12,854 bases of DNA from a virus, in the IMG/VR virus record IMGVR_UViG_3300032331_003080, positions 1-12,854 of that record. The stretch is one strand, 5' to 3'. This document shows positions 1 to 12,854 of the stretch, one piece after another (position 1 is the first letter of the stretch; every line of letters starts with the position of its first letter). A program made the position numbers and the translations under genes. Below the pieces are notes generated by a model. It ran no database searches. It saw only the letters and a list, made by a program, of their open reading frames with translations, and was not told the origin of the DNA.

Positions 1-179
1 AAGTGGTACACCTTGTCGTTGGGACGCACACGATCATTCCAACGACGGATCATGGCTTCATCCATCTCATCAGGATCAGTCCATGGACGCAATTTCACTT
101 CAGGATCGTCTGGGTGTGTGAACTTGCATACACCAGCGTGTCCAAAGTGTGTGTCACTGACTAAAAATACTGCTGGCAT
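1..179 (-). CDS. metallophosphoesterase (calcineurin-like), N-terminal 59 codons; continues past window start
   Basis: Below the ORF-track length cut-off. Hand translation from ATG 179..177: MPAVFLVSDTHFGHAGVCKFTHPDDPEVKLRPWTDPDEMDEAMIRRWNDRVRPNDKVYH. SDTHFGH matches phosphoesterase motif I. AAGGAG (191..186) lies 6 nt upstream of the ATG. Confidence 0.7.
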   Translation of the reverse strand, partial: MPAVFLVSDTHFGHAGVCKFTHPDDPEVKLRPWTDPDEMDEAMIRRWNDRVRPNDKVYH

Positions 180-189
180 ATCTTGCTCC

Positions 190-408
190 TTATACTTGTT
201 TTTTCTTCTTCACTCGTCCAATGCGATCAGCCTTGTTCCAATCATATGCAATGCCATCTGGGCATACGCCATTGCTCACTGCATCAACACCAAAGCGTCC
301 GCATATTTCAAAATCTTTTCCGTGGATCACCACAAAGGCATCCAGGGTTTTGGCATGAGTCATAGCGTCTGCTAGTGTGGTAAATTCTTGTTGTTCTATT
401 TTGTACAT
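190..408 (-). CDS. hypothetical 72-aa protein; candidate leaderless mRNA
   Basis: ORF track gives 190..414. The first ATG (414..412) abuts the -10 hexamer. The second ATG (408..406) begins 7 nt after the -10. No Shine-Dalgarno upstream. No recognisable family. Confidence 0.5.
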   Translation of the reverse strand: MYKIEQQEFTTLADAMTHAKTLDAFVVIHGKDFEICGRFGVDAVSNGVCPDGIAYDWNKADRIGRVKKKKQV

Positions 409-414
409 TTCCAT

Positions 415-443
415 ATTATAGCATTTTGGAAATATTTGGTCAA
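415..443 (-). promoter_or_regulatory. sigma70-type promoter P1 (class A): TTGACC-17 nt-TGcTATAAT
   Basis: Minus strand: -35 TTGACC at 443..438, -10 TATAAT at 420..415, 17-nt spacer, TGc extended -10 at 423..421. Belongs to a conserved block of about 37 nt shared with P7, P8 and P9. Confidence 0.7.
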
Positions 444-446
444 GTA

Positions 447-956
447 CTACTTATTACTTACTTCTTGCCAGGTATGATCGCCCATGTATCTTACCTGCAT
501 TAAGTACTGGTAATCTTCAGGAATGCCAGTAGACCAATCGGTTGGACCGTTATGTACTAGCAGTGTCTTTTCATGTCTTTTGTGCTGAACCAGCCAATAG
601 CATTTGCCCATTACAAGTTGAAAATTGTATTCTGCGGCATACACCGCATCAGTCACGTCAAGTCTGCGTTTGATATCTTGAGCTTGTTTTTCTAATACTG
701 CTACCAACTCCATGATACGATCATATTCTTGCTGGGCATACATCCTAGCATGATTGATCATTAGGTCTTTTTGTTGTTCGACTGGAACTAGATCAAACTT
801 GGGACCCGATGTGCTGGTAGCATATGGTGTTACATTGCGATTAAAAAAATGTACTAAGGTGTTGCCAGTAGTGACATCAAAACTATCTCGACCCTTGGCG
901 CTGTTTGATTGCTCAGAATCCCGCATGGTCCTTGTGACGTCGACGAGGTTCAACAT
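447..956 (-). CDS. hypothetical protein (about 160-169 aa)
   Basis: Long ORF, last gene of the P2 operon. Start is uncertain: ATG 956 has no SD and overlaps the omega-like gene by 44 nt; ATG 926 has AAGGA only 2-3 nt upstream. No family assigned with confidence. Confidence 0.65.
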   Translation of the reverse strand: MLNLVDVTRTMRDSEQSNSAKGRDSFDVTTGNTLVHFFNRNVTPYATSTSGPKFDLVPVEQQKDLMINHARMYAQQEYDRIMELVAVLEKQAQDIKRRLDVTDAVYAAEYNFQLVMGKCYWLVQHKRHEKTLLVHNGPTDWSTGIPEDYQYLMQVRYMGDHTWQEVSNK

Positions 957-1179
957 CTAGAGTCTTAGTAAGATATTCGCGACCAGTTTTTCCCTCTTCA
1001 ATTTCCTTGAGAGTGGTCAACATAACACCATGTTTGCAATTCACACGTGGACGATCACCACGGCTGATTTCTCTTGCTCTACGACTAGCAATCAAGATTA
1101 AATCGTATCTATTGCCCACAGCCTTGACTGCGTTTTGGCTAGTTAATCCTGCATATTCTTCATGTTCTAAATCAGTCAT
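913..1179 (-). CDS. rpoZ: RNA polymerase omega subunit (RpoZ)-like protein, 88 aa
   Basis: SQNAVKAVGNRYDLILIASRRAREI...TTLKEIEEG aligns with E. coli omega [25 protein letters not shown]...IALREIEEG (recalled from memory). AAAGGA lies 5 nt upstream of ATG 1179. There is an 8-nt overlap (ATGACTGA) with the upstream gene. Confidence 0.8.
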   Translation of the reverse strand: MTDLEHEEYAGLTSQNAVKAVGNRYDLILIASRRAREISRGDRPRVNCKHGVMLTTLKEIEEGKTGREYLTKTLDVEPRRRHKDHAGF

Positions 1180-1465
1180 CTTGGTCCTTTGTTGTTAATC
1201 CGTTTGAGTGTTTGTCACGCAACTGTTCTAAATCTTGGAACAGCCGTTTTTCTTGTGCTGTTAATCGATCCTTGTGCGTCTTGCGTGGATTACCGCACAA
1301 GTAACAGGCCGGATTACCACAGTCCATTGCACGATGCTTGGCATAACGATGTGGCGTCTTGATTTGAGCACCATGAGCCTGGGCAATTTTTACTTGCCTG
1401 GATATGGCCACATCCTTTTTATGCCTGCGTTTTGAATTTAGGTATCTGGCTAAATCGTTACTCAC
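1172..1465 (-). CDS. small basic Cys-containing protein (97 aa), possible zinc-binding
   Basis: GTG start at 1465..1463 with AAGGA 5 nt upstream. Lys/Arg/His-rich, contains CGNPACYLCGNP. First gene after promoter P2 and translationally coupled to the omega-like gene. Confidence 0.6.
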   Translation of the reverse strand: MSNDLARYLNSKRRHKKDVAISRQVKIAQAHGAQIKTPHRYAKHRAMDCGNPACYLCGNPRKTHKDRLTAQEKRLFQDLEQLRDKHSNGLTTKDQDD

Positions 1466-1488
1466 AGTGATCCTTTGTGTTGTTCAAC

Positions 1489-1517
1489 AGTATACACTCT
1501 ATACAGTACAATGTCAA
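1489..1517 (-). promoter_or_regulatory. sigma70-type promoter P2: TTGACA-17 nt-TATACT
   Basis: -35 TTGACA at 1517..1512, which contains the TGA stop of the hldD-like gene. -10 TATACT at 1494..1489. 17-nt spacer. Confidence 0.55.
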
Positions 1518-2278
1518 CCGTTTAGAGCTTGATACGTTCGAGTCATATCAGCACATGTGTACATTTGGTAACTGTTTTTTAAATTCTCAGGCATGGGTAT
1601 CTCGTCAATAGGCACACCAAATTGTTCGGCTACTTGTCGAAAACTTCGAGTTTTACCAGTTCCGATATTGAATATACCACTAACAGGCCTTGTGAGAAAT
1701 CTCAAGTGCATGGCCACAACATCTTGTACAGGAACAAAATCTCTAAGATAATTTTCACTACCTTCAAACACCCGTATTCTACCTGTTTCTTGTGCTTGTT
1801 TTGCAAATTGATGATAAGGACTTGCCTGTGTACCTTTGTGATCTTCTCCGGGACCGTACACATTGAAATATCTAAAACCTTGTACCGTGTTACCACCTTG
1901 GTGTCTAGTATGATGCCGCTCAAACAAATACTTGCTCCAGGCATAGGGTGTGCAAGGATCGGGCGGAGCATCTTCGTTAAAAGTACTAACCAACCCATAT
2001 ACACTGGCTGAACTAGAGTATTGTAAATTGACCCCAAATCGTTTACAGTCATCAAACAGTACGACACTAAAATCATAGTTTTGAGTAAACACTCGGTCCA
2101 CATCACGTTCGGTAGTTGAACTGATTGCACCCATGTGTATGACCCAGTCGTAGTCTATCACTCCTGGACACGGTCCGTCCGCCCATTCAAATGTATCAAC
2201 CTCATGTTCCATTCCGTTAAGAGCCTGTAACATATTGCTACCAATAAATCCTTGATGGCCTGTTAGTAATATTTTCAT
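1514..2278 (-). CDS. hldD: ADP-L-glycero-D-manno-heptose 6-epimerase-like SDR (short form, 254 aa)
   Basis: N-terminal GxxGxxG ([12 protein letters not shown]). [37 protein letters not shown] and [14 protein letters not shown] match E. coli HldD/RfaD blocks [37 protein letters not shown] and SGIFNLGTGRAESF (recalled). ATGA overlap with the cupin gene. Confidence 0.88.
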   Translation of the reverse strand: [254 protein letters not shown]

Positions 2279-2631
2279 TTTTGACTGTCTCCCGGTAACA
2301 CACGATAGTTGTCTTCTACTGAGTCCGGGGTCGACACTTCAATGATAGTGCCCTCTTCTAAACATATCAGTTGATGCGGTTGCAATGGTCTATTTCTCCA
2401 GGTAGTGCCCGGTTTAAGTATTGCATCATGCTGGCTGGCATCATTGGTTTCAATGAATACTACCTTGAACAAACCATCCAATACATACCATGATTCATCC
2501 TTCTCAGCATGGAAGTGCATGCTGAATCGAGCACCGGTATTGAATTTCATAAGTTTGCCACAGTACTTGTCGTTAGTGGCCCAAATCAATTCACTACCCC
2601 ATCCCTTTTCTACATATCCTTCTAATCTCAT
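2275..2631 (-). CDS. cupin-fold protein, type II phosphomannose-isomerase-like
   Basis: KGWGSELIWATNDKYCGKLMKFNTGARFSMHFHAEKDESWYVLDG fits the PMI/GMP type II cupin pattern (WG..E.....YxxK.l.v..G..lS.q.H..r.E.w.V..G). ATGA overlaps on both sides. Confidence 0.75.
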   Translation of the reverse strand: MRLEGYVEKGWGSELIWATNDKYCGKLMKFNTGARFSMHFHAEKDESWYVLDGLFKVVFIETNDASQHDAILKPGTTWRNRPLQPHQLICLEEGTIIEVSTPDSVEDNYRVLPGDSQK

Positions 2632-3386
2632 CGGATTTCCTCTAACGCAGGTGCATACACACCAAAGTGTTGTACAGTGACCGCACTGGCTCGGATTGCA
2701 AATTCTATTGCAGATTTCATACGTTTGGTCACCAGGTATTGATAGGCCAGTGCTGCCAAAAACGTGTCTCCGGCACCGGTCACATCTGAAACTTCTACGG
2801 TAACACCTGGATATTGATGTTCTGCACCATCTGAATAGTATACAGCACCATCACCGCCTTGTGTCACGATCAAATCAGTACAGCCACTGGTGATACGACT
2901 GTGTTCAAGTGCATTGATTTTTACAATGCATCTATCTAGTCTTGCTAGATCAGTTTTTTTGGTATCCACAAATACAGGACCAGAAAAATTCTGTTGTATT
3001 TGTTCTAGAACTTCATAGGTCACTGTGCCTTTGTTGTAGTCGCTCACAACCACGGCATCATACTCCTCAAAGATTTCGTTGAATACTACAGCAGGCTCAG
3101 ATTCAGCATCTGCGTCTATTCGCACTATGTGTTGTTTGCTACGCTGATCAATCAGTCTTGTTTTTACAGATGTATTACCGGTAATAACACCAACTGCACA
3201 GCCTAATCGTTCAAGGTTGGCTCTAACATTGGCAGCCATGCCGTGACGTTGTTCTTCATGGCTGACTTGGAAAATAGGAACAGGTGCTTCGGGACTGAGT
3301 CGATCCACTGTGCCGTAACGGTATATGTCCAGGCAGGTGTCACCGATTACTAATACTTTGAATTTTTTCTGTGGTTGAGAATCCAT
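2628..3386 (-). CDS. hldA: D-glycero-beta-D-manno-heptose-7-phosphate kinase-like (PfkB family; HldE domain I-like)
   Basis: KVLVIGDTCLDIY..G.VDRLSPEAPVPIF is the HldE/RfaE kinase-domain N-terminus. DVTGAGDTF is the PfkB signature. Shorter (252 aa) than the E. coli kinase domain. Confidence 0.82.
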   Translation of the reverse strand: MDSQPQKKFKVLVIGDTCLDIYRYGTVDRLSPEAPVPIFQVSHEEQRHGMAANVRANLERLGCAVGVITGNTSVKTRLIDQRSKQHIVRIDADAESEPAVVFNEIFEEYDAVVVSDYNKGTVTYEVLEQIQQNFSGPVFVDTKKTDLARLDRCIVKINALEHSRITSGCTDLIVTQGGDGAVYYSDGAEHQYPGVTVEVSDVTGAGDTFLAALAYQYLVTKRMKSAIEFAIRASAVTVQHFGVYAPALEEIR

Positions 3387-3732
3387 CTATTCTTTCAAAA
3401 AATACAATGCTTGAGCAAACTTCTGATCCCACAATAGCACGATCGCGATAGTCTGATCCTTTGACCATTATAGCACATTCTGCAACGATGTCAACAAGTT
3501 CCAGATCAGAATCAAATATCCTAACCTCATCTACCGAGCGTAGATTACTCAAGAGTTCTTGCCGTTCTGCTTGTGTATTTACAGGACGGCTCACGCCCTT
3601 CAATTCTTTTACTCGTCGATCAGAGTCAATGGCAACCACAAGATGGTCTCCTAGACTCCTGGCATACGTCAACAATTCTAGGTGTCCGGAATGTAAGATA
3701 TCAAATGTGCCGTTGACTATGATTCGTTTCAT
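3340..3732 (-). CDS. hldC: D-glycero-beta-D-manno-heptose-1-phosphate adenylyltransferase-like (HldE domain II-like cytidylyltransferase fold)
   Basis: NGTFDILHSGHLELLTYARSLGDHLVVAIDSDRRVKELKGVSRPVN...VKGSDY...GFSTTEKI parallels E. coli HldE domain II [46 protein letters not shown]...VKGGDY...GCSTTNII (recalled). The HxGH motif is present. Confidence 0.85.
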   Translation of the reverse strand: MKRIIVNGTFDILHSGHLELLTYARSLGDHLVVAIDSDRRVKELKGVSRPVNTQAERQELLSNLRSVDEVRIFDSDLELVDIVAECAIMVKGSDYRDRAIVGSEVCSSIVFFERIDGFSTTEKIQSISNR

Positions 3733-3860
3733 TAGATCTCTTCGTAGTCAGCTTTGAATCCACCACACTCAGGGCAAGGAAAGTCCTCAGGAAGATCTTC
3801 CCATTTGCCTTCTGTTTCTTCATCGTGTACATGACCACAAATTACGCATACGTGTTCCAT
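3732..3860 (-). CDS. rubredoxin-like protein, 42 aa (missed by ORF track)
   Basis: Hand translation: MEHVCVICGHVHDEETEGKWEDLPEDFPCPECGGFKADYEEI. Contains CxxCG...CPxCG. GGAGG lies 7 nt upstream. TAATG overlaps at both ends (3862..3858 and 3734..3730). Confidence 0.8.
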   Translation of the reverse strand: MEHVCVICGHVHDEETEGKWEDLPEDFPCPECGGFKADYEEI

Positions 3861-4309
3861 TATAGTGCCTCCAACTTTTGTTTGTAAAGATTTGCGTGAT
3901 GTTGCTCTACTCGTTGTAGTGCGGCAAAACGCTTTTCTGCTTTGGCCAACACAGCTCGGAACTGTTCAGCATGTTCGCGGCTTTCGTCAATTTGGTGCTG
4001 TGCTTCTCGAATAGCAGCCTCGTTGCCTTCGTTGTGCGCGGCGTTTTTCATGCGTGGATACATGTAAGTGAACTCTTCAGTTTCGCCCTCAATGGCTTTT
4101 TCCAAACATTCTCGAGTGGTTGGCTTGCCAACAAGCAATTCCAAATGTCCCCAGGCATGTTTGAGTTCTTGATCTGCTGTGTGTTCAAAGTGTTGGGCAA
4201 CATCTTCGTAACCTTCTTCGCGAGCAATACGTGCGAAGTAACGATATTTGATGTGAGCTTGTGACTCCCCAGCAAGTGCGCTTTCTAAATTTTTAATTGT
4301 AATTGACAT
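3860..4309 (-). CDS. rubrerythrin-type diiron (ferritin-like) protein lacking the fused rubredoxin domain
   Basis: LAGESQAHIKYRYF, EHTADQELKHA, IEGETEEFTYMYP and ESREHAEQF give two E...ExxH diiron motifs typical of rubrerythrin. AAGGAG lies 5 nt upstream of ATG 4309. Confidence 0.85.
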   Translation of the reverse strand: MSITIKNLESALAGESQAHIKYRYFARIAREEGYEDVAQHFEHTADQELKHAWGHLELLVGKPTTRECLEKAIEGETEEFTYMYPRMKNAAHNEGNEAAIREAQHQIDESREHAEQFRAVLAKAEKRFAALQRVEQHHANLYKQKLEAL

Positions 4310-4333
4310 ACATTCTCCTTATTAAGTAGTACT

Positions 4334-4363
4334 ATTATATATTATAGTAACAGCCTAAGTCAA
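4334..4363 (-). promoter_or_regulatory. sigma70-type promoter P3: TTGACT-18 nt-TATAAT
   Basis: -35 TTGACT at 4363..4358, -10 TATAAT at 4339..4334. A second TATAAT at 4346..4341 is too close to the -35. The leader AGTACTACTTAATAAGGAGAATGT runs to ATG 4309. Confidence 0.55.
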
Positions 4364-4408
4364 CGGGTTTTACCATTGTATTTTTTAATGATAGTAATAG
4401 ATTTTGCC

Positions 4409-4488
4409 TGGTACCCCTGCTTGGATTCGAACCAAGACCATGTACTCCCTTTTGAGGAGAGTGACTTTACCAATTTGTCTACAGGGGC
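4409..4488 (-). tRNA. tRNA with anticodon CAA (Leu by anticodon), atypical short variable region, CCA encoded
   Basis: Hand fold: acceptor GCCCCTG/CAGGGGT (G1:U72 wobble), D-arm GAC/GTC, anticodon arm CTCTC-CTCAAAA-GGGAG, 8-nt variable region, T-arm CTTGG-TTCGAAT-CCAAG, discriminator A, CCA. Confidence 0.65.
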
Positions 4489-4657
4489 AATAAATATTGT
4501 ATGAAGAACGATCCAGGATCAGTAGCACCGTTGTATAGAGAATTTTCTACAGAGCCCTATGAACCCCAGGTTCACGCTACCACTTGTTGTGTATTTACAT
4601 TAGATCCGTTGTTTATTGCCGCAGATTTAAAATTTCAACTTACTCCGTTATTGAACG

Positions 4658-4912
4658 TTAATCATCCCGAGATACTTGCCGTTCTCTGACCTTCATTCCA
4701 AACCAAGTGCCAACAAATGCACCTGCCAGGGCCGGGATCAAGGCCCAATGGTCAGCAGTATAATTGATAACTGCTATACTAGCAGTAAATGTCACAACCA
4801 TGCTCCAAAAGCTGGCGTGCCAGGGTCTATCATTCTGAATCGATTTTACAAAATACACGTAAATCAAATCAGTAAAGAATACTGCAAAAAATGTTACTGT
4901 GTATTCTAACAT
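4658..4912 (-). CDS. small membrane protein, about 3 predicted TM segments with charged C-terminus
   Basis: Hydrophobic stretches YTVTFFAVFFTDLIYVYFV, FWSMVVTFTASIAVINY and WALIPALAGAFVGTWFG. Tail is KVRERQVSRDD. Start is directly adjacent to the upstream stop (TAAATG). Confidence 0.6.
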   Translation of the reverse strand: MLEYTVTFFAVFFTDLIYVYFVKSIQNDRPWHASFWSMVVTFTASIAVINYTADHWALIPALAGAFVGTWFGMKVRERQVSRDD

Positions 4913-5143
4913 TTATTTTTTCTTTTCCAGTGGGGGTTCTTTGGTCTTGTCAAGTTCATGTGGCTCGGCAAATCTAGATTGGTTTCCCCAGGCTGCCCAA
5001 CTATCCTCAGTAAACAGTCGCACAGGTTTCCAAAAACGTACAATAATATTGTTAACCACAACAATACCGATTACAATCGAAATCAATGCTATCATTGTCA
5101 AAATGCTACCAGCTAGAAACGTTGCGGCGTGATCCATATCCAT
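4913..5143 (-). CDS. small single-pass membrane protein (76 aa)
   Basis: One TM segment (FLAGSILTMIALISIVIGIVVVNNIIV) and a Lys-rich C-terminus. AAGGAA lies 7 nt upstream of ATG 5143. Immediately downstream of tRNA-fMet. Confidence 0.6.
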   Translation of the reverse strand: MDMDHAATFLAGSILTMIALISIVIGIVVVNNIIVRFWKPVRLFTEDSWAAWGNQSRFAEPHELDKTKEPPLEKKK

Positions 5144-5164
5144 GAGTGTGTTCCTTATATGAGT

Positions 5165-5239
5165 TGGTTGCGGGGGAAGGATTCGAACCTCCGTCTTTCG
5201 GGTTATGAGCCCGATAGTCTACCACTGACGTACCCCGCG
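5165..5239 (-). tRNA. initiator tRNA-fMet (anticodon CAU), CCA encoded
   Basis: Sequence CGCGGGG...TCGGGCTCATAACCCGA...CCCCGCAACCA. It has the C1xA72 mismatch and three consecutive G:C pairs closing the anticodon stem, as in E. coli tRNA-fMet (recalled). T-arm GGAGG-TTCGAAT-CCTTC. Confidence 0.85.
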
Positions 5240-5243
5240 TTGT

Positions 5244-5272
5244 ATTATAACTTATTTACAGCTGATTGTCAA
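5244..5272 (-). promoter_or_regulatory. sigma70-type promoter P4 (class B, perfect consensus): TTGACA-17 nt-TATAAT
   Basis: -35 at 5272..5267, -10 at 5249..5244. The tRNA-fMet 5' end (5239) is the 5th nt after the -10. The TAA stop of the upstream CDS (5258..5256) lies inside the spacer. Confidence 0.72.
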
Positions 5273-5966
5273 TGTTTTCTAAAACATAGTCAGCAAATGC
5301 TTGATGTGCTGGTTCAAAAAAATGTCCCCAATCAGTATGGGGAAACTTTTGTTCTAAGCACCATTCGCAAAATTTAGTAGTACCAATTGGCCAATATCCA
5401 ACGTCGATAGTGCCTGGTATGCCCGCAAAACTATCAATGTTTATGATTTTTATATTTTGATTTTTTGCCAACATATTAACTGCAAGAATGTTTTTGAGTT
5501 TGTTTAATCTACCGCGCTGACCATCGCTTTCGTATGTAATCCAATATTTAGAAAAGTCAGCGTATGCATCAGCATCGGATATCATGCCACCAAGACGCTG
5601 TCCTTCTAGCATGACATGATTGCGAGTCACATTATTTAAAACAACATTTCCGTGAGTTACTGCCAACCAACGTTGTTGTTTTTCATACCATATTTCGGTT
5701 CTAGAATCGCCAGTCCAACAAGCAATCACAATGTCATCTTGATCTAGTTTTTGGCTTTCAAATATTCTAAACATAGCATCATTACTGCCTCCAGATATGG
5801 CGTGATTGCGGACTTCATATCCTAGGGCTTGTGCTATTTTAACTGGATAACTTTTGGTATATCCATACTCTTCTAAATTTTGTGATGATGGTAAATTCAA
5901 GCCTGGCTCTTTGTATATTTCGGCACCAGCCGCATGACTACACCCTAATATCAATGCTTTTTTCAT
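5256..5966 (-). CDS. SGNH/GDSL-like hydrolase-fold protein (putative)
   Basis: N-terminal LILGCSHAAG (block I-like, Ser present), ISGGSNDAMF (block III GxND-like), C-terminal EPAHQAF (His block). Distant paralog of 9342..10118. Confidence 0.6.
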   Translation of the reverse strand: MKKALILGCSHAAGAEIYKEPGLNLPSSQNLEEYGYTKSYPVKIAQALGYEVRNHAISGGSNDAMFRIFESQKLDQDDIVIACWTGDSRTEIWYEKQQRWLAVTHGNVVLNNVTRNHVMLEGQRLGGMISDADAYADFSKYWITYESDGQRGRLNKLKNILAVNMLAKNQNIKIINIDSFAGIPGTIDVGYWPIGTTKFCEWCLEQKFPHTDWGHFFEPAHQAFADYVLENIDNQL

Positions 5967-5971
5967 AATTT

Positions 5972-6060
5972 TGGCGGAAAGTATAGGAATCGAACCTATG
6001 CACCGTTATTCACAGTGATGGATTAGCAATCCATTGCCTTAACCACTCGGCCAACTTTCC
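5972..6060 (-). tRNA. tRNA-Ser (anticodon GCU), class II with long variable arm, CCA encoded
   Basis: Hand fold: GGAAAGT/ACTTTCC acceptor, ATGGA-TTGCTAA-TCCAT anticodon arm, variable arm CACTG-TGAATAA-CGGTG, T-arm ATAGG-TTCGATT-CCTAT, discriminator G. Confidence 0.9.
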
Positions 6061-6098
6061 TTTGTTTTCCAGTGTTAGATATTTAACTAAGTATTTTT

Positions 6099-6989
6099 AT
6101 GGTGCCAATATTCTTATTAACTTACAATGAACAGGATTCTTTTGTAGAAATTTACAACGACCAATTTGTACGAACTCACTTCGGCCCCAACAACATACAT
6201 TTTTATGTGTTAGACAATGGCAAGCAACCAAAAATCGAATCTTGGTGTCAACGCCACGGATACACATACTATGCCAGTGAATACAACATTGGCAGTTCGG
6301 GTGGCTACAATTGGATTTTTAAAACAGCATTTCGACTTAGGTTACAAGCGGCTGTATTAATGCAGGCCGATGTTGAAATTACGTCGGCCTGGCCGCTTTT
6401 GTTTACCTATCAACTTACTAGAGCGTTTGGAACGACACATTTTATTACTTGGCCACAAACTTTTCATCACAGTGATTATAGTGCAGAAATATCTTATCAT
6501 GATCTTAAATCAAATTTACCAAATTTAGGAAACCTTGTGGGATTTGATCCGATTATGATGTACCACAAAAATTGTTATTTTGATGAAAATTACGTGGTCA
6601 CACACTGTGATGATTTAGAATTTTTGTATCATATGCGTACTAAAAATATGAATGCTGTCAATGCAATTTCGCTATTGCCTGGTGCAGTAGAAACAGCTCA
6701 ACGATTTGTATTGCCTGGCACCGAAACTCGAACTCATTCACACGTGATAACATTTAATAATGAAGAAATAAGAATACATCATGTCAGCCAATTTTATGAA
6801 AGTCATGATCCTTGGTTAGCAGTTAACAAACCTTATTACGATCTTATGTGGGAACAATCACAATGCCAAACAAGAGCACCGTACGATCCTGCTCGGTGGC
6901 AACAGTTTGGATACCCTGCTTATCCAGTGCAACACGAACTTGATCGGTTTTTTAAACAATATCCAAAATTAACACATGGAGCGGAATAG
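6099..6989 (+). CDS. glycosyltransferase family 2-like protein
   Basis: This is the only convincing plus-strand gene. VPIFLLTYNE (GT2 N-terminal xxTYN motif), VLDNGKQ, YNIGSSGGYNWIFKTA (N.G.aGG.N block), QADVE (DxD-like). No SD upstream. The last 13 nt overlap tRNA-Gly on the opposite strand. Confidence 0.65.
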   Translation: MVPIFLLTYNEQDSFVEIYNDQFVRTHFGPNNIHFYVLDNGKQPKIESWCQRHGYTYYASEYNIGSSGGYNWIFKTAFRLRLQAAVLMQADVEITSAWPLLFTYQLTRAFGTTHFITWPQTFHHSDYSAEISYHDLKSNLPNLGNLVGFDPIMMYHKNCYFDENYVVTHCDDLEFLYHMRTKNMNAVNAISLLPGAVETAQRFVLPGTETRTHSHVITFNNEEIRIHHVSQFYESHDPWLAVNKPYYDLMWEQSQCQTRAPYDPARWQQFGYPAYPVQHELDRFFKQYPKLTHGAE

Positions 6990-7050
6990 CGGAATCGAAC
7001 CGCTGACTTGAACTTGGAAGGATCTCGTTTTACCATTAAACTAATTCCGC
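6977..7050 (-). tRNA. tRNA-Gly (anticodon UCC), CCA encoded, imperfect anticodon stem
   Basis: GCGGAAT/ATTCCGC acceptor, D-arm GTTT-AATGGTA-AAAC, anticodon loop CTTCCAA, T-arm AGCGG-TTCGATT-CCGCT, discriminator U (Gly-like). The AGATC/GTTCA anticodon stem has AxA and UxU mismatches. Confidence 0.72.
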
Positions 7051-7052
7051 AT

Positions 7053-7361
7053 TTAAATTGTTTGCTTTTTAAATTCTTCCTCGGCTTTTTTGTGCAAGAC
7101 AAACCATCTATTATGAATTAAATTAGCATATTCATAATTGTAATCTAATTGTGCATAATCTATTAATTGTTTATACAAATTCTCACTCAAAGTAGGCGCA
7201 TAAAGTTCAACCAAATCAATTAAAATTCCGTTGATACTATTTGCTAGTGTTGTTACCTCAGCAAATCTCTGTTCACAAAGGTTAATAAACACTTGTTCGT
7301 TCACACCATTGAAGTCTGGATTGATTTTTTTTATATAACAAACTTGGTAAAAATTTATCAC
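7053..7361 (-). CDS. C-terminal portion of a frameshift-interrupted hypothetical gene
   Basis: ORF track 102 aa. The nominal start is GTG 7361 with a weak SD. It overlaps the upstream ORF only around the A8 run (7332..7325). See the frameshift finding. Confidence 0.5.
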   Translation of the reverse strand: MINFYQVCYIKKINPDFNGVNEQVFINLCEQRFAEVTTLANSINGILIDLVELYAPTLSENLYKQLIDYAQLDYNYEYANLIHNRWFVLHKKAEEEFKKQTI

Positions 7362-7656
7362 TACTTTCTATAAAAATATTTAATTCATTAAATTGAGCTA
7401 ATTTGTTTTGCCATTCAAAATCATGATCTGGGTGCATGAACATTATAAATCTTTTTAAATCATCTCTCCATATCCATTCATAATCCAACCAATTTGAATG
7501 TGTTCTTTTGAGTGGGTATATACTATTAAGAATATAATTTACTTTGTCTGTAATAGATTGAAAATTAAAAAAATTAAATTTTTCATCTATTAATAATAAC
7601 CATCTTAAGTGATTACCGCCGGCTCCCCAAGGAGCCCAAATTGTTAAATTACTCAT
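7282..7656 (-). CDS. N-terminal portion of a frameshift-interrupted hypothetical gene
   Basis: ATG 7656 with GGAG 5 nt upstream. Very AT-rich. The frame ends 14 codons after the A8 run. No family recognised. Confidence 0.6.
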   Translation of the reverse strand: MSNLTIWAPWGAGGNHLRWLLLIDEKFNFFNFQSITDKVNYILNSIYPLKRTHSNWLDYEWIWRDDLKRFIMFMHPDHDFEWQNKLAQFNELNIFIESSDKFLPSLLYKKNQSRLQWCERTSVY

Positions 7657-7691
7657 CTATGCTCCGAAAAACTTGGCGGTCCCAGGAAGAA

Positions 7692-8432
7692 TTAAACTCC
7701 CGCCGTGAAAGGGCGGCGTCCTGCCCAATATGTGGTTTTTAACCAAGTTTGGTAAATGTGGTCAGCCATGGCTTGATGCTGGATCAAATTTGGTTCAATC
7801 CCGTTCAAGATACCATCACGATCCTGCACACTTGCATATTGTTCTCTAGCCAAGGTCCATTTAGGATCTTCGTCCATAGCCCATTCACGGGCTTTGTCTG
7901 CATCCATCTCTATATGAAACTGCATGGCCAGATGTGGCCCGATAGCAAATGCTTGGTTAGCACAAGCGGCTGAACCAGCCAGGCGTGTGGCACCAGTGGG
8001 TATACTAAAAGTGTCGTAGTGCCACTGTATCACGGTAGAGGTAGGTGCGGAACCAAACCACTGTTGTGTTTCAGGAACATCCTCATATTCAATGGGTTGC
8101 CAACCTATTTCAGGTTGCGGTGATATTCCGATTGTGGCACCTAGTGCTCGAGCCATCAATTGCCCACCCAAACAATGTCCTATGACCGGACGATCCAATC
8201 GCATGGCTTGTAGTATTAAAATTTCTGCTTGGCGATTACTCAGCAAGGGATCATTAGCACTCATGCCACCACCCATCACAGCCAAGGCTGAGTAAGGTTC
8301 TATGCTGACAGGAAACTGTTGCCACAACCCTGCATTGCGTGTCTCATGCGGAATATCGTGTTGGCCCAACCAGGTCACAAGGTATGCAGGACGCTCGGGT
8401 GTTTGGTGTTGTAGTATTAAAACAGGTTTCAT
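7692..8432 (-). CDS. class I glutamine amidotransferase (GuaA-GATase-like stand-alone domain)
   Basis: VIGHCLGGQLMA (nucleophile-elbow Cys) and LAMQFHIEMD (His-Glu) match the GATase1 triad. Visibly higher GC than its neighbours. No SD before ATG 8432. Confidence 0.82.
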   Translation of the reverse strand: MKPVLILQHQTPERPAYLVTWLGQHDIPHETRNAGLWQQFPVSIEPYSALAVMGGGMSANDPLLSNRQAEILILQAMRLDRPVIGHCLGGQLMARALGATIGISPQPEIGWQPIEYEDVPETQQWFGSAPTSTVIQWHYDTFSIPTGATRLAGSAACANQAFAIGPHLAMQFHIEMDADKAREWAMDEDPKWTLAREQYASVQDRDGILNGIEPNLIQHQAMADHIYQTWLKTTYWAGRRPFTAGV

Positions 8433-8449
8433 TGGGATATTTAGTCAGT

Positions 8450-8469
8450 AGAAACCCGCCGAAGCGGGT
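8450..8469 (-). terminator. intrinsic terminator ending the ssrA transcript
   Basis: Minus strand ACCCGC-TTCG-GCGGGT followed by TTTCT. GC-rich stem with a UUCG tetraloop. Confidence 0.6.
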
Positions 8470-8512
8470 CCTGGTGATTTCTGTTACGAGGTATTTCCTA
8501 CCCTAGGCTACT

Positions 8513-8545
8513 TTACGCGGCCAATGCGAACTGTGAGTCGTTAGC
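8513..8545 (-). other. tmRNA tag reading frame: ANDSQFALAA + UAA
   Basis: GCT AAC GAC TCA CAG TTC GCA TTG GCC GCG TAA. The upstream context GCAAAAAAAGTAAAC resembles the E. coli GCAAAAAATAGTC context before the resume codon (recalled). An in-frame upstream GCA (8560) would give AKKVNANDSQFALAA. Confidence 0.7.
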
Positions 8546-8724
8546 GTTTACTTTTTTTGCTTGATTAACGGTCATCGCCTACCGTGTTGCCGTCGCTACT
8601 ATCTAGCTCAATCGATCCTGTGTCATCCCCACCTAAATATACTGTATACACTTAGGTGGAGATGCCGGGCACTGCCCCCGGGTCTTGAACTCCTTCGTTT
8701 TGAAGGGATTACAACAATATTTGT

Positions 8725-8753
8725 ATTATATATTTATTTGATCAACTTGTCAA
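8725..8753 (-). promoter_or_regulatory. sigma70-type promoter P5 (class B, perfect consensus): TTGACA-17 nt-TATAAT, drives ssrA
   Basis: -35 at 8753..8748, which contains the TGA stop of the upstream small CDS. -10 at 8730..8725. Predicted start near A8718. Confidence 0.75.
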
Positions 8754-8917
8754 CCACCACGTCCGGTAACCTTGCGCATGGGCTTACCACCAGGTGAGGG
8801 TGGTGCTTTGCGTTTGGCCGCTTTCTGTTGTGTCTTGCTTAGTTTGGCATCAGGTTGATGTATGCCTTGCTTTTTTGCAAGTGCCTCTTTTATCTCTTCT
8901 GTAAAGTTTTTGCTCAT
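8750..8917 (-). CDS. small basic protein, 55 aa
   Basis: ORF track 8750..8965 trimmed to ATG 8917, which has AGGAG 6 nt upstream. The longer form would overlap the tRNA at 8932..9007. Sequence: MSKNFTEEIKEALAKKQGIHQPDAKLSKTQQKAAKRKAPPSPGGKPMRKVTGRGG. Confidence 0.55.
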   Translation of the reverse strand: MSKNFTEEIKEALAKKQGIHQPDAKLSKTQQKAAKRKAPPSPGGKPMRKVTGRGG

Positions 8918-8931
8918 CGCGTACTCCTGGT

Positions 8932-9007
8932 TGGTGCCTTGGGAGGGAATCGACCCCCCAGTCAAAGGATTATGAGTCCTCTGCTTTGACCGTTAAGCTA
9001 CCAAGGC
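8932..9007 (-). tRNA. tRNA with anticodon CAU (elongator Met or Ile2/lysidine type), CCA encoded
   Basis: GCCTTGG/CCAAGGC acceptor, D-arm GCTT-AACGGTCA-AAGC, anticodon arm GAGGA-CTCATAA-TCCTT, T-arm GGGGG-GTCGATT-CCCTC (G instead of U at position 54), discriminator A. Confidence 0.8.
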
Positions 9008-9015
9008 CCATGTGT

Positions 9016-9044
9016 ATTATATAGTAATATTGTTGCTATGTCAA
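9016..9044 (-). promoter_or_regulatory. sigma70-type promoter P6 (class B, perfect consensus): TTGACA-17 nt-TATAAT
   Basis: -35 at 9044..9039, which contains the TGA stop of CDS 9041..9349. -10 at 9021..9016. The tRNA 5' end (9007) is the 9th nt after the -10. Confidence 0.75.
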
Positions 9045-9349
9045 GCGATTAACCACGTAGTACTACGTTTTAATTCAATGCTTTCTTTTCCATCGTATTC
9101 AGTGATGCGAAACTCTTCACCCTGTGGCACCCACTCAACTATTAGGTGTGGTAATGCGCCTAAAAAGATAGTGGGATATTTGAGTCGGATGTAGATTTCT
9201 AATTTTTCCATTTGCTCAGATTCAACATACTCCACAATAACAGGATCAAATACCAATTCGGGATATTTAGTATTCCAGGTATACCAGCCTGCACCAAACT
9301 CTGGGCTGTACACCACACCTACCTTGCCATCTTGTATTAGTTTATTCAT
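9041..9349 (-). CDS. hypothetical protein, 102 aa
   Basis: Clean ORF with an 8-nt overlap (ATGAATAA) with the upstream gene. No family recognised. Confidence 0.7.
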   Translation of the reverse strand: MNKLIQDGKVGVVYSPEFGAGWYTWNTKYPELVFDPVIVEYVESEQMEKLEIYIRLKYPTIFLGALPHLIVEWVPQGEEFRITEYDGKESIELKRSTTWLIA

Positions 9350-10118
9350 CTTCCATACTTAATAAATTTTCCCATTGAGCTTTGCGATCCCAATAAAACG
9401 GCACCCATTTTTCCTTGTCAACAAGTGTTTTCAAATTGATTAATCGAGTGTTATCTAATTTGAAAGGTAATTTATGTAATAAACATTCAACCAGCCAGTT
9501 AAGATGTACAGCAGGTGATGGTTGAACTTCAGTTTGTCTAATGTTATTGTATTTAGGTTGAGTACTGTACTCGCTCATGCCTGCCCACGGTTTGTGCCAT
9601 GCCCAATTTGCATCTGTTAGTGTATTTTTTTGTGCCAAAGACAAATACTCAGGAGAATACGTAAACATATAATAGTATTGAATATTATTATTGTTAAAGT
9701 AATTTTTTAATAACAACATATAATTATAAGTTCTCAAGTTGGCTTGAGTTTCTTCTATATAAAAATCGTGATAGTGTGCAACTTCGGATTGTGTGCTACT
9801 ACTACTCAACCACCAATTATTATCTCCCAACTTAACTGTATTTTGTGAATACACAGGATCTGTGTTAATAATTGTATTCCACCTGGCGGTGTTGATTAAT
9901 TTATCTAGTCGGCGAGGACTTGCCCATTGCATAATAAAAATTCCGTCAGTAGGTGTTTGTAATGCCGCATTAAGCAAAAACTCATTGCCTGCACCAATAC
10001 CAGCAGTGTTTACTACCTCAACTTTGGGATAAATTGCTTGTAATAATTGCGGCCACTCCGGCCATATATGCCCCATGGCATAGCCATCTCCAAATGTATA
10101 GATTTTTTTTATATCCAT
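9342..10118 (-). CDS. SGNH/GDSL-like fold protein, divergent paralog of 5256..5966 (nucleophile position is Gly)
   Basis: IYTFGDGYAMGH (block I-like with GDG instead of GDS), GIGAGNEF (block III-like), SPAVHLNW (His block). Low GC. No obvious SD. Confidence 0.6.
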   Translation of the reverse strand: MDIKKIYTFGDGYAMGHIWPEWPQLLQAIYPKVEVVNTAGIGAGNEFLLNAALQTPTDGIFIMQWASPRRLDKLINTARWNTIINTDPVYSQNTVKLGDNNWWLSSSSTQSEVAHYHDFYIEETQANLRTYNYMLLLKNYFNNNNIQYYYMFTYSPEYLSLAQKNTLTDANWAWHKPWAGMSEYSTQPKYNNIRQTEVQPSPAVHLNWLVECLLHKLPFKLDNTRLINLKTLVDKEKWVPFYWDRKAQWENLLSMEDE

Positions 10119-10152
10119 CTAGTGGGGTATTGTTCTGCTGGTACGGGCATGA

Positions 10153-10326
10153 TTAATATACCTCTTTAATAATTTCAAATTCAGTTTTGGGATATTTTTC
10201 TTTGAATTCTTCAGATTGCACAAATTTATTAAAATCTGTTGCAGTAAAGAATACCCTTTTGAAAACACTTTGCAATTTTCCCTTTGGGACTATTGTCAGA
10301 TAGACGCTTGTTGCTTTGCCTGCCAT
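10153..10326 (-). CDS. hypothetical small protein, 57 aa (missed by ORF track)
   Basis: Hand translation: MAGKATSVYLTIVPKGKLQSVFKRVFFTATDFNKFVQSEEFKEKYPKTEFEIIKEVY. AAGGA lies 6 nt upstream of ATG 10326. It fills an otherwise empty 230-nt gap. Confidence 0.6.
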   Translation of the reverse strand: MAGKATSVYLTIVPKGKLQSVFKRVFFTATDFNKFVQSEEFKEKYPKTEFEIIKEVY

Positions 10327-10347
10327 TGTGGTTCCTTTAGTTGGTGT

Positions 10348-10674
10348 TTAGTCTGCACGGCTCATCATGTATGCTTTAATGCCGAACTTTTCCAAAGTTT
10401 CGGCATAGGCACGGGCGCCAGTTTCTTTCACATCCATGCTTTGTGTAAAGCTACCACCGGGGTTCCACAAGTCCAAGCCACCTGAGTAAGATTTGCGGAA
10501 GCCCACAGTTTTAAGAGCACGACCTAATTTGGTACTGGCTTTGACAGGTACGTTGACCCAGGCAAAACCACAGTAGGCCATTTCGCCATGTTTGGCAACA
10601 AAGTCTGCTTCGGCTTTACGAGCGGCCTCTGTAGCAGTATTGTGAACGGATTCAATGTTTTCGAGTGCAATCAT
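10348..10674 (-). CDS. hypothetical protein, 108 aa
   Basis: The ORF-track N-terminus (to 10737) starts at the TTG of the -35 hexamer. The real start is taken as ATG 10674 with AAGGAG 6 nt upstream. Sequence begins MIALENIESVHNTATEAARKAEADFVAKHGEMAYCGFAWVNV... Confidence 0.7.
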   Translation of the reverse strand: MIALENIESVHNTATEAARKAEADFVAKHGEMAYCGFAWVNVPVKASTKLGRALKTVGFRKSYSGGLDLWNPGGSFTQSMDVKETGARAYAETLEKFGIKAYMMSRAD

Positions 10675-10704
10675 TCGGGGCTCCTTGTTTGTGTTTATGT
10701 CCAT

Positions 10705-10733
10705 ATTATAGCATTTTGGGAATAATCGGTCAA
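10705..10733 (-). promoter_or_regulatory. sigma70-type promoter P7 (class A): TTGACC-17 nt-TGcTATAAT
   Basis: -35 at 10733..10728, -10 at 10710..10705. It shares 25 consecutive identical nt with P8. Confidence 0.7.
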
Positions 10734-10737
10734 CCAA

Positions 10738-11088
10738 TTACTCACCGTACTCGTCAGACTCTGCGTAATCTTCTGATGCTTCGCAAAATATTTTCATCCA
10801 ATGTTTCTTGGGCAAGGCATGCAACAATTCAGGAGTCACATAACATGGATTTTTGAGTTCGTATGTTTCTCTAGCACGACGGGCTAACTTTTGTATTACT
10901 TTTTCATAAGTTTCAGCAACCACAGGGTCAGCCAACATGTCCACATATATTTTTTTCTTGCTCAGTTTGAACTTCTTGAGCATAACTGGCTCCCAAGTTT
11001 GATCATAGTCGCCGTATGCAATGTCCTTGCACACTTTCTGCAAACTTACTGGGGTTACCTTGATTGTGTTTTTTAAAGTTACTTGCAT
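10738..11088 (-). CDS. hypothetical protein, 116 aa, acidic C-terminal tail
   Basis: ORF track trimmed to ATG 11088, which has AGGAG 6 nt upstream. The track's start is the TTG of the P8 -35 hexamer. The tail is EASEDYAESDEYGE. Confidence 0.7.
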   Translation of the reverse strand: MQVTLKNTIKVTPVSLQKVCKDIAYGDYDQTWEPVMLKKFKLSKKKIYVDMLADPVVAETYEKVIQKLARRARETYELKNPCYVTPELLHALPKKHWMKIFCEASEDYAESDEYGE

Positions 11089-11119
11089 TCTGGCTCCTGT
11101 TTTGTTACTGTATGTCCAT

Positions 11120-11148
11120 ATTATAGCATTTTGGGAATTATTGGTCAA
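11120..11148 (-). promoter_or_regulatory. sigma70-type promoter P8 (class A): TTGACC-17 nt-TGcTATAAT
   Basis: -35 at 11148..11143, -10 at 11125..11120. The TAA stop of the GIY-YIG gene (11140..11138) lies in the spacer. Confidence 0.7.
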
Positions 11149-11470
11149 CCTTTTTGACCCGTATATCTGTGTTCAAAACAGGTGTATACTTTTGTATTAA
11201 TTCCCGCTCCAATTTGTGTGCCTGGGCTTTGCCACGTACAATGTCCACGATTGCAAAATTCACAGCCCGCTCGCCGTTTGTGCGAATTGCTTCGTACAAG
11301 TTCCAACTCTTGCTTTCAGTGCGACTGCGGTAGATGTGCTTGTTAACACGGCTCTGCAGGCTCATGTTAATAGTACGCTGGGTTTTAGCGGTAATACCAA
11401 TGTAGTACTCTTCCCCAATTTGGAGCATGTATACTATATGAGTGCGATCTGAACGTTTCTTTCTTATCAT
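11138..11470 (-). CDS. GIY-YIG nuclease catalytic domain only (110 aa); candidate leaderless mRNA
   Basis: [17 protein letters not shown] (GIY...YIG), R...H (RVNKH), [20 protein letters not shown] (conserved Glu and Asn) resemble the I-TevI/Seg catalytic domain. The only start upstream of the first beta-strand is ATG 11470, 7 nt after the P9 -10. Confidence 0.72.
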
Positions 11471-11476
11471 GTGTGT

Positions 11477-11505
11477 ATTATAGCATTTTGGGCATTTTTG
11501 GTCAA
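11477..11505 (-). promoter_or_regulatory. sigma70-type promoter P9 (class A): TTGACC-17 nt-TGcTATAAT
   Basis: -35 at 11505..11500, -10 at 11482..11477. Downstream sequence is ACACAC then ATG. Confidence 0.7.
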
Positions 11506-11536
11506 CCAAAAAATACTACTACAAAAGTACTACTTT

Positions 11537-11896
11537 TTATGTACGTTCAAGATAACGCAAAAAACGGCTCAAATCCCCATACATAGCATACATCATGGCT
11601 TGTTCACTTCCGAACAAATGCAACACAGGAGTTTTTCCCGGCTCAATATAATATGGACAATCCAATTTCCTGCTCAACACCAACAAGTCGCCCATGCGAA
11701 AAATTTTAGGAACTGCAAACCCATGCGAGGCAATACCGTATTTTCGAAGCATATCATATCCACGTTCAGTAAGTCTAAGTCCATCTTGTTTGGTAAAAAT
11801 CATCCACCAATCAACAAGAGCTTGTTCGTAGGTAAGGCGCTCTTCCGTAGGAAGAAATTCTAACAGTTTAAGAGTGATTTGTTTTTTACTTGACAT
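11537..11896 (-). CDS. hypothetical protein, 119 aa
   Basis: Clean ORF with an 11-nt overlap with the upstream gene. No family recognised. Confidence 0.7.
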   Translation of the reverse strand: MSSKKQITLKLLEFLPTEERLTYEQALVDWWMIFTKQDGLRLTERGYDMLRKYGIASHGFAVPKIFRMGDLLVLSRKLDCPYYIEPGKTPVLHLFGSEQAMMYAMYGDLSRFLRYLERT

Positions 11897-12182
11897 CGGG
11901 GTACACTTGAGCCCCTTGTGTCAAAAGCACGACTGTGAACTTGTCGGTCTTGAATTGTGTGTTGAGTTTACGTGCCAAGTTTTTGGCATGCCCGGGATTT
12001 GAAAAGCTGACCTTCTTGTACTTGGGTCCTGGGTACTGTGTCAGCATGTTAGATGTTTTGAGATTGATAGGCTTGTTGTCGTAAAACACCGCCCAAACAC
12101 CTTCAGAGGCCAATACTTGTTCGGTCTTGTAGGTTTGTTTGTTTGTGTGCTCGATTAATACATTAGGTTTTGGGCGGCTCAT
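11886..12182 (-). CDS. hypothetical protein, 98 aa
   Basis: ATG 12182 with GGAG 6 nt upstream. Lys-rich. No family recognised. Confidence 0.7.
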   Translation of the reverse strand: MSRPKPNVLIEHTNKQTYKTEQVLASEGVWAVFYDNKPINLKTSNMLTQYPGPKYKKVSFSNPGHAKNLARKLNTQFKTDKFTVVLLTQGAQVYPDVK

Positions 12183-12213
12183 CGTTATCTCCGTAGTTTA
12201 TTTATCTAATAAA

Positions 12214-12429
12214 CTAGGGGTTTTTGAAACCACCGCCACTCAATTCTACCGTAACAGTTTCTGTTTTGGATGCTGTTAATTGTGTACGTAATACTTCAAG
12301 AGTCAGCAGTAACTTAGTGATATCACTGTGTAAATCTTTAGCATCGCGCATGTTCATGATGAAGTCCCGTTGGCCACGTGCTTCATGTGCTTTGATACTA
12401 TCAACAAAACGATTTATATGCAGGCTCAT
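12214..12429 (-). CDS. hypothetical protein, 71 aa
   Basis: ATGA start/stop overlap with the MazG-like gene (12429..12426). Confidence 0.65.
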   Translation of the reverse strand: MSLHINRFVDSIKAHEARGQRDFIMNMRDAKDLHSDITKLLLTLEVLRTQLTASKTETVTVELSGGGFKNP

Positions 12430-12782: not shown

Positions 12783-12854
12783 ATTAATCTTGTACAAATA
12801 AATTGGATTGGCCACCCGCCTCTTCTCGTGACTGGAAAGGGCCTTGGTAAGCAT

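Follow-up and report, generated by a model that had tools for sequence, protein, structure and literature searches.

The stretch of DNA analysed here (the window) is the 12,854-nucleotide (nt) virus record IMGVR_UViG_3300032331_003080 of IMG/VR, positions 1 to 12,854, which is a phage fragment with five tRNA genes. Its minus strand carries two promoters, P9 and P1, and at each of them an ATG lies directly behind the discriminator, the short segment that follows the -10 hexamer. P9 precedes the gene of a probable GIY-YIG nuclease and P1 precedes the gene of a small protein with the N-terminus MYKI..., called the MYK protein. Both genes are candidates for leaderless expression, that is, for mRNAs that start with the AUG and lack a Shine-Dalgarno (SD) sequence. 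The elements of the two loci, including the open reading frames (ORFs) and their lengths in amino acids (aa), are as follows.

11477..11505, minus strand: P9 promoter, TG at 11485..11484, 11 of 12 consensus positions plus an extended -10, present upstream of every examined family member
11471..11476, minus strand: P9 discriminator ACACAC, variable in sequence among relatives, constant at 6 nt in nearly all of them
11138..11470, minus strand: predicted leaderless ORF 1, probable GIY-YIG nuclease, 110 aa, predicted transcription start (+1) at the ATG 11470..11468
415..443, minus strand: P1 promoter, TG at 423..422, 11 of 12 consensus positions plus an extended -10
409..414, minus strand: P1 discriminator ATGGAA, which holds an in-frame ATG (414..412) expected to lie upstream of the transcript 5' end
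190..408, minus strand: predicted leaderless ORF 2, MYK protein, 72 aa, predicted +1 at the ATG 408..406

The two loci share one layout. In P9, the -35 hexamer TTGACC (11505..11500) is followed by a 17-nt spacer ending in TGC, the -10 hexamer TATAAT (11482..11477), the discriminator ACACAC (11476..11471), and the ATG (11470..11468) of the ORF that ends at 11138. In P1, TTGACC (443..438), a 17-nt spacer also ending in TGC, TATAAT (420..415), and ATGGAA (414..409) lead to the ATG (408..406) of the ORF that ends at 190. The 7th nt past the -10 is the A of the ATG in both cases, and the base before it is C at P9 and A at P1. No SD is present at P9 or P1, where only 6 nt separate the -10 from the ATG, and the 5' ends of both predicted mRNAs are essentially unstructured. 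An earlier note, made from the sequence alone, had read the sites as TATAAT-ACACAC-ATG and TATAAT-ATGGAA-ATG on the minus strand with no SD, and both coordinates and sequence agree with that reading. It had also called the 7th nt the usual start-site position, and this is indeed the modal start in bacteria (PMC5730371). The preferred start lies 7 bp past the -10 at a purine preceded by a pyrimidine, and the start probabilities are ~3%, 70%, 23%, and 4% at positions 6 to 9 (PMC5730371). P9, where position 7 is A and -1 is C, matches this preference perfectly.

The relatives of the nuclease in IMG/VR number at least 560. A close set of 80 IMG/VR loci with close relatives of the 110-aa protein gave 54 distinct upstream regions, all 54 of which contain the promoter, with a gap between -10 and ATG of 6 nt in 53 and 5 nt in one. 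A distant set from a profile-based search, with relatives at 55-75% protein identity, gave 31 distinct upstream regions, and the ATG lies 5-7 nt past a TATAAT in 31 of 31; in two of these (L378 and L380) the script took a farther promoter, and the nearer TGcTATAAT located 6 nt before the ATG was assigned by eye. In total, ~85 distinct upstream regions have a gap of nearly always 6 nt, down to 55% protein identity. The discriminator itself differs: 8 versions occur among the close relatives, and further ones among the distant relatives. The N-terminal extension before RKKR also varies, from 0 to ~7 residues (M-RKKR, MI-RKKR, MELKKQS-RKKR, MNTKTVT-RKKR), and the distance from -10 to ATG is unmoved. 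In 53 of 53 cases a pyrimidine (C or T) stands at -1, and all GIY-YIG starts found close to a promoter are ATGs.

The coding status of the N-termini bears on the question of whether other start codons are used, namely Met15 (11428) or an upstream TTG (11509) for the nuclease and the ATG 414..412 for the P1 gene, which would then encode 74 aa. Automatic calls speak for such starts, the P1 product being called at 74 aa and some nuclease homologs at 115-163 aa, although for the P9 nuclease itself the gene callers place the start at the same ATG (11470). Residues 3-14 (RKKRxDRTHIxY) hardly vary, whereas Met15 does, so ATG 11470 is to be taken as the real start. A start at Met15 would also cut the predicted beta-strand 1 (residues 10-18 in an AlphaFold model with a predicted local distance difference test score, pLDDT, of 75), which bears out the view that ATG 11470 is needed to preserve the first GIY beta-strand. 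The TTG at 11509 falls within the upstream edge of the promoter, and the 115-aa nuclease homologs have an ATG of their own, also 6 nt past a -10. At P1, the in-frame ATG 414..412 that gene callers choose abuts the -10, forms part of the discriminator, precedes any likely start site, and is shared by only one homolog, the closest relative (97% identical). Other start codons are on these grounds a very improbable explanation. The statement that the P1 gene has no other plausible start before residue 18 nevertheless needs amendment, as this in-frame ATG exists and residue 18 had been counted from it.

Between the upstream gene and P9 lies one further element.

11507..11539, minus strand: terminator-like hairpin AAAAAGUAGUAC-UUUUG-GUAGUAGUAUUUUUU plus U-run, starting at the stop codon of the upstream gene and ending 1 nt before the P9 -35

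This hairpin folds at -9.5 kcal/mol (z = -3.6). Relatives keep a hairpin here: one variant is altered in both arms (GTAATAC/GTATTAC), and in some others an unrelated stem takes its place. In a 235-kb relative and two shorter contigs, the genes upstream of the nuclease are on the opposite strand and the nuclease gene is therefore the first in its unit; the 120-bp intergenic region upstream of it holds only the hairpin and the promoter. The window's downstream neighbour of the nuclease gene is seen in only five relatives, so the unit of hairpin, promoter, ATG, and ORF sits in varied contexts. For the nuclease gene, the predicted leaderless start is a fixed trait of the whole family and part of a compact hairpin-promoter-ATG-ORF cassette.

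The MYK family behind P1 is different in that it exists in two states. The N-terminus M-Y/F-K is conserved across 59 distinct upstream contexts. A promoter occurs within 90 nt in 31 of the 59, and the ATG is 4-7 nt past its -10 in all 31 (6 nt in 24, 7 nt in five, 5 nt in one, and 4 nt in one). These promoter-proximal copies have ~25 different discriminators, with a pyrimidine at -1 in 27 of 30. The other 28 contexts lack a promoter, and most of them carry a purine-rich leader or an SD, for instance AAGGA; a few promoterless copies follow a tRNA gene and have neither (L147, L152, L160, L161). No copy with both a promoter and an SD leader was found among the 59 contexts. The start codon is ATG in 33 of 33 leaderless contexts and GTG or TTG in 3 of 28 leadered copies, a trend that alone is not significant. 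Initiation at a 5' terminus is known to favour AUG strongly. On a neighbour-joining protein tree the leaderless and SD-led states are intermixed, including the close sister pairs L142/L151 and L157/L164, and the state has therefore switched many times. As read from these upstream regions, the MYK gene appears to be leaderless whenever it heads its own transcription unit, and promoterless copies mostly have an SD or a purine-rich leader. The earlier impression that the difference between leaderless and leadered genes looks deliberate is strengthened by this pattern of states, which are never mixed in one copy and are interspersed on the tree.

A side feature of one MYK subclade (L092-L103, L112, L119, L128-L131, L137-L139) is a GC-rich terminator hairpin, AAACCCTG-nnnTTGA-CAGGGTTTTCTTTT, located ~45 nt upstream of the ATG. 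It overlaps the -35 and spacer of the leaderless promoter, which places terminator, promoter, and start codon within ~50 nt. A PDB sequence search with the MYK protein gave no match.

The constancy of the gap must also be set against translation mainly from longer read-through or polycistronic transcripts, by SD-independent internal initiation (A/U-rich unstructured region, S1, or re-initiation), with the closeness of -10 and ATG as incidental compaction. Such compaction leaves unexplained why the 6-nt gap is held while discriminator and N-terminal length change, why a pyrimidine is kept at -1, and why a promoter and a longer leader never occur together in a MYK copy. Several other genes of the window that also lack a recognisable SD (for example those starting at 10118, 8432, 5966, and 7656) fit read-through translation, as do the MYK homologs whose leaders have no clear SD and the position of P1 only 3 nt past the upstream stop codon with no terminator, whereas P9 is preceded by a hairpin and U-run and several relatives have no same-strand gene upstream of it. 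On balance, read-through as the main source of translation is unlikely. Leaderless expression of both genes, as the earlier note proposed, is the predicted and quite probable reading, in view of the spacing kept in ~85 GIY-YIG and 31 MYK regions in which discriminator and N-terminal length vary.

Two sibling promoters in the window provide the contrast.

11089..11148, minus strand: sibling promoter P8, -10 at 11125..11120, AGGAG at 11098..11094, ATG at 11088, predicted 25-nt leader
10675..10733, minus strand: sibling promoter P7, -10 at 10710..10705, AAGGAG at 10686..10681, ATG at 10674, predicted 24-nt leader

The predicted leaders of 24 nt (P7) and 25 nt (P8) are in line with the ~20-25 nt and the AAGGAG or AGGAG noted before. 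The 15-mer CCAAAATGCTATAAT is identical in P1, P7, P8, and P9 (415..429, 10705..10719, 11120..11134, and 11477..11491, all on the minus strand). The P1 ATG was also considered as a by-product of this shared promoter module, where P7 and P8 read ATGGACATA and P1 reads ATGGAAATG; this idea was ruled out, as MYK homologs with unrelated promoters keep the same spacing. The spacer of these class A promoters is very similar in relatives (CC[CG]AAATGC), a conservation that exceeds the needs of the hexamers, and the shared spacer may mark a regulator site.

The same spacer, CCAAAATGC, is one reason to consider that the promoter-like sites are not used by sigma-70 during infection, being instead sites of phage factors or of a modified or phage polymerase with another start point. 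It is conserved beyond hexamer needs, identical in four copies, and similar in relatives; in addition, the phage encodes an RNA polymerase omega homolog, and TATAAATA motifs precede some tRNAs in relatives. This explanation is nonetheless distinctly unlikely, given that every promoter element (-35, 17-nt spacing, TG, and -10) matches the consensus fully or nearly so, that tRNA and transfer-messenger RNA (tmRNA) genes are driven by the same architecture and have their mature 5' ends a few nt behind it, and that MYK promoters with quite different spacers keep the gap to the ATG.

A separate repeat is the octamer AGTAGTAC, which has 4 copies against 0.19 expected (0 of 200 shuffles), at 444..451 and 11527..11534 on the minus strand and at 4325..4332 and 5376..5383 on the plus strand. 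Two copies lie just upstream of the leaderless promoters, one abutting the P1 -35 and the other forming the 5' arm of the pre-P9 hairpin.

Under the leaderless reading, the host sigma-70-type RNA polymerase would recognise the near-consensus promoters (TTGACC, 17 nt, TGnTATAAT) and start transcription at the A located 7 nt past the -10, which is the first base of the start codon. The transcript would open with 5'-AUG and have no untranslated region and no SD. Ribosomes carrying initiator tRNA would then recognise the 5'-terminal AUG directly, via the 70S pathway or the pathway of initiation factor (IF) 2 and formylmethionyl-tRNA (fMet-tRNA), as known from lambda cI. The arrangement of the sequence, its conservation, the coding N-termini, and the absence of an SD are direct observations, whereas promoter activity in the host, the precise position of the 5' end, and the route of ribosome binding are predicted. 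Leaderless mRNAs bind 70S ribosomes via the 5'-terminal AUG and are inhibited by IF3, and extra fMet-tRNA strongly enhances their translation in E. coli systems (PMC9031893). The earlier statement that abundant fMet-tRNA favours leaderless initiation agrees with these E. coli data (PMC9031893). Low or specially timed expression of the nuclease, or a compact self-contained cassette, are possible reasons for the leaderless state.

Several considerations weigh against this reading. P1 has A instead of a pyrimidine at -1, and some transcripts may therefore start one base earlier. Only 3 nt and no terminator separate P1 from the upstream stop codon, so read-through transcripts with an internal ATG must also exist. 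The use of the promoters by the host polymerase is assumed from their consensus, the host being uncultured, and the related contigs are non-independent samples. Leaderless mRNAs are usually translated poorly in Proteobacteria, the likely host group. Finally, TATAAT-N6-ATG occurs twice in the window against 0.30 expected and 11 of 200 shuffles reach two, so the window by itself is only marginally above chance and suggestive only. The comparative data, in turn, place the arrangement of promoter and ATG far beyond chance. The 11 promoter-like sites of the window scoring at least 11 of 12 are all on the minus (coding) strand.

Leaderless starts are also predicted for other genes of related phages. 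In related loci, an 87-aa family, a P-loop kinase-like family, and proteins of 90, 130, and 143 aa start 5-8 nt past a strong -10. A sample anchored on the initiator tRNA of the clade, not on the focal genes, covered ~280 kb with 52 distinct strong promoters, of which 6 (~12%) have an ORF-opening ATG at 6-7 nt, with the peak at 6 nt; none of the 8 ATGs at 1-5 nt past the -10 opens an ORF. A search of IMG/VR with TTGAC-N18-TATAAT-N6-ATG showed, among the 120 loci listed, that 64% of the ATGs begin an ORF of 50 aa or longer, versus 22% of all ATGs, and that, among the matches listed, 74 of 83 have a pyrimidine at -1. Promoters outside the selection pattern in those loci, again among the matches listed, give only a small peak at 6-7 nt. 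Leaderless starts of this predicted kind are a recurrent minority mode in these phages.

The P9 product had been called a GIY nuclease. This holds as a probable assignment by sequence motifs: IVY (12-14), YIG (23-25), R41, H45, E88, and N100 are invariant down to 38% identity, and the invariant residues are Y14, Y23, G25, R41, H45, E88, and N100. Less favourable is the Pfam score for PF01541 (GIY-YIG), which at 21.1 bits (E = 4e-4) falls just below the cutoff of 22.6. PHROG homing-endonuclease families match the protein (E = 1e-6 to 1e-5), and searches of NCBIfam and of PDB sequences gave no match. The AlphaFold model (pLDDT 75) has the order beta-beta-alpha-alpha-beta-alpha. A Foldseek search of the model against PDB found nothing significant, although among its weak hits (E of at least 1) are two GIY-YIG proteins, UPF0213 protein 1zg2 and restriction endonuclease Hpy188I. 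No DNA-binding domain is recognisable in the nuclease, and a scan of bacterial and archaeal genomes for it gave no match.

A possible partner of leaderless translation lies elsewhere in the window.

5239..5165, minus strand: initiator tRNA-fMet with encoded CCA, preceded by a 12/12 consensus promoter at 5272..5244 (whole element 5165..5272)

The tRNA reads CGCGGGG...CCCCGCA-ACCA, with a C1 x A72 mismatch and the anticodon CAU, and its anticodon arm UCGGG-CUCAUAA-CCCGA has GGG/CCC, three G:C pairs at the base of the stem. The gene described earlier as a strongly promoted initiator tRNA gene has the features of a true initiator in addition to the 12/12 promoter. This clade-specific initiator tRNA is found in 26 IMG/VR contigs and in the 235-kb Joint Genome Institute (JGI) contig L165, and its upstream contexts vary. 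It accompanies a leaderless nuclease gene in L181, L192, L193, and L165, and a leaderless kinase-like gene in L180; the co-occurrence of initiator tRNA and leaderless genes is a feature of the clade. The phage tRNA-fMet is possibly linked to leaderless translation, in line with the literature. A bolder and rather unlikely proposal is a small leaderless regulon, in which the phage's own initiator tRNA would raise fMet-tRNA and shift initiation toward 5'-terminal AUGs. If true, the phage itself would program the host to switch between SD-led and leaderless translation, in a proteobacterium that is normally poor at the latter.

Some tRNA genes of the window lie almost on their promoters. The mature 5' end is the 5th nt past the -10 for tRNA-fMet (5239..5272, minus strand) and the 9th nt for a second tRNA-Met (9007..9044, minus strand), and therefore little or no 5' leader would be left for RNase P to remove. 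In L165 (19310..19328), L179, and L186, a motif resembling T4 late promoters, TATAAATA, lies 8-10 nt before the initiator tRNA; the window has a sigma-70 consensus promoter in its place. The 236-aa gene at 5966..5256 (minus strand) starts 5 nt past the encoded CCA of tRNA-Ser (CCA-AAATT-ATG, 5964..5975) with no SD, so its mRNA would be nearly leaderless after tRNA processing.

A close precedent in a phage is the lambda cI mRNA, the classic leaderless mRNA of bacteria. Transcription of cI from the sigma-70-type promoter PRM starts at the A of the AUG, with no 5' untranslated region or SD, and the 5'-terminal AUG is translated with 70S ribosomes and initiator tRNA, which resembles the situation predicted here (PMC10491246, PMC9031893). 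In contrast, cI is a lysogeny repressor with a weak, activator-dependent promoter, whereas the promoters here are near consensus with an extended -10, belong to a large phage, and serve the genes of a nuclease and of a small protein, with starts predicted from sequence. The Thermus thermophilus phage phiYS40 is similarly large, many of its genes are leaderless, and the initiation machinery is proposed to shift in their favour: its middle and late mRNAs are mostly leaderless, and host IF2 is raised and IF3 lowered (PMC3594737). This IF2/IF3 shift parallels the role proposed for the phage initiator tRNA. In contrast to phiYS40, whose host phylum widely uses leaderless mRNAs, the present host is likely betaproteobacterial and only a minority of promoters are leaderless. 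Sevostyanova et al. 2007 are said to have described phiYS40 promoters without a -35.

In Deinococcus-Thermus and Actinobacteria, a -10 also lies a few nt upstream of the start codon with no SD (PMC12340547, PMC4007540, PMC3160421). There the genomes are cellular and the mode is widespread, whereas here it is limited to particular gene families of phages that probably infect Proteobacteria. T4-like phages carry free-standing GIY-YIG homing endonucleases (seg genes, I-TevI) that use an SD and whose translation is limited by mRNA structure. The present nuclease resembles these in being a small nuclease ORF with its own promoter, located between unrelated genes in variable contexts, and it differs from them in its predicted leaderless start and in its lack of a recognisable DNA-binding domain.

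The mechanism itself is already known, and what is new are these genes and their phage group as examples; the value lies in extending and giving access to a known mechanism, with no new principle. Gene callers mis-start these genes (74 instead of 72 aa for P1, and nuclease variants of 115-163 aa), the calls also do not reveal the mode of expression, and a promoter-adjacent ATG deserves treatment as a start signal in this large group of uncultured freshwater phages. The families also form a natural experiment, in which the MYK family appears to flip repeatedly between SD-led and leaderless states and the nuclease family to be leaderless throughout its history. Both supply constructs, ready for use, with which the requirements of a working leaderless mRNA in Proteobacteria can be studied. 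That the phage tRNA-fMet may boost leaderless translation is a testable hypothesis, the same genomes carrying an initiator tRNA.

The host assignment comes from a two-piece (permuted) tmRNA of the Betaproteobacteria type at 8449..8767 (minus strand), which scores 156 bits against a gathering score of 84 and has a 12/12 promoter at 8753..8725; the type points to a likely betaproteobacterial host. ARAGORN missed this tmRNA in the window and found one in the relative L165 (16295..16693), with the tag ANDEQFALAA. The relatives number in the hundreds and come from metagenomes, taken as mostly freshwater, with contigs of up to ~350 kb. Against cultured phages, neither a megablast of the whole window nor a tblastn of both focal proteins gave a match, and a tblastn of an amidotransferase-like protein returned only distant guaA-like matches.

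Among the neighbouring genes, 913..1179 (minus strand) encodes the 88-aa RNA polymerase omega homolog (Pfam Rpb6, E = 8e-12; TIGR00690 rpoZ, E = 1e-8). An omega homolog is probably unusual for a phage, and it could bear on the phage's use of the host polymerase. An auxiliary metabolic block at 1514..4309 (minus strand) comprises a nicotinamide adenine dinucleotide (NAD)-dependent epimerase, a cupin, a PfkB-type sugar kinase, and a cytidylyltransferase, followed by rubredoxin and rubrerythrin, and its sugar genes resemble those of heptose or nucleoside diphosphate (NDP)-sugar synthesis. The window also encodes a MazG-like protein.

In a region that is otherwise minus-strand, the only long plus-strand ORF (6099..6989, 296 aa) is protein-like, with no match to a Pfam or NCBIfam family; it is flanked by tRNA-Ser and tRNA-Gly and shares 13 nt with the 3' end of the latter. 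A trough in GC content at 7201..7600 (25.5% versus 41% overall) spans the 124-aa ORF at 7656..7282 and the start of the ORF at 7361..7053, and may be a recent insertion.

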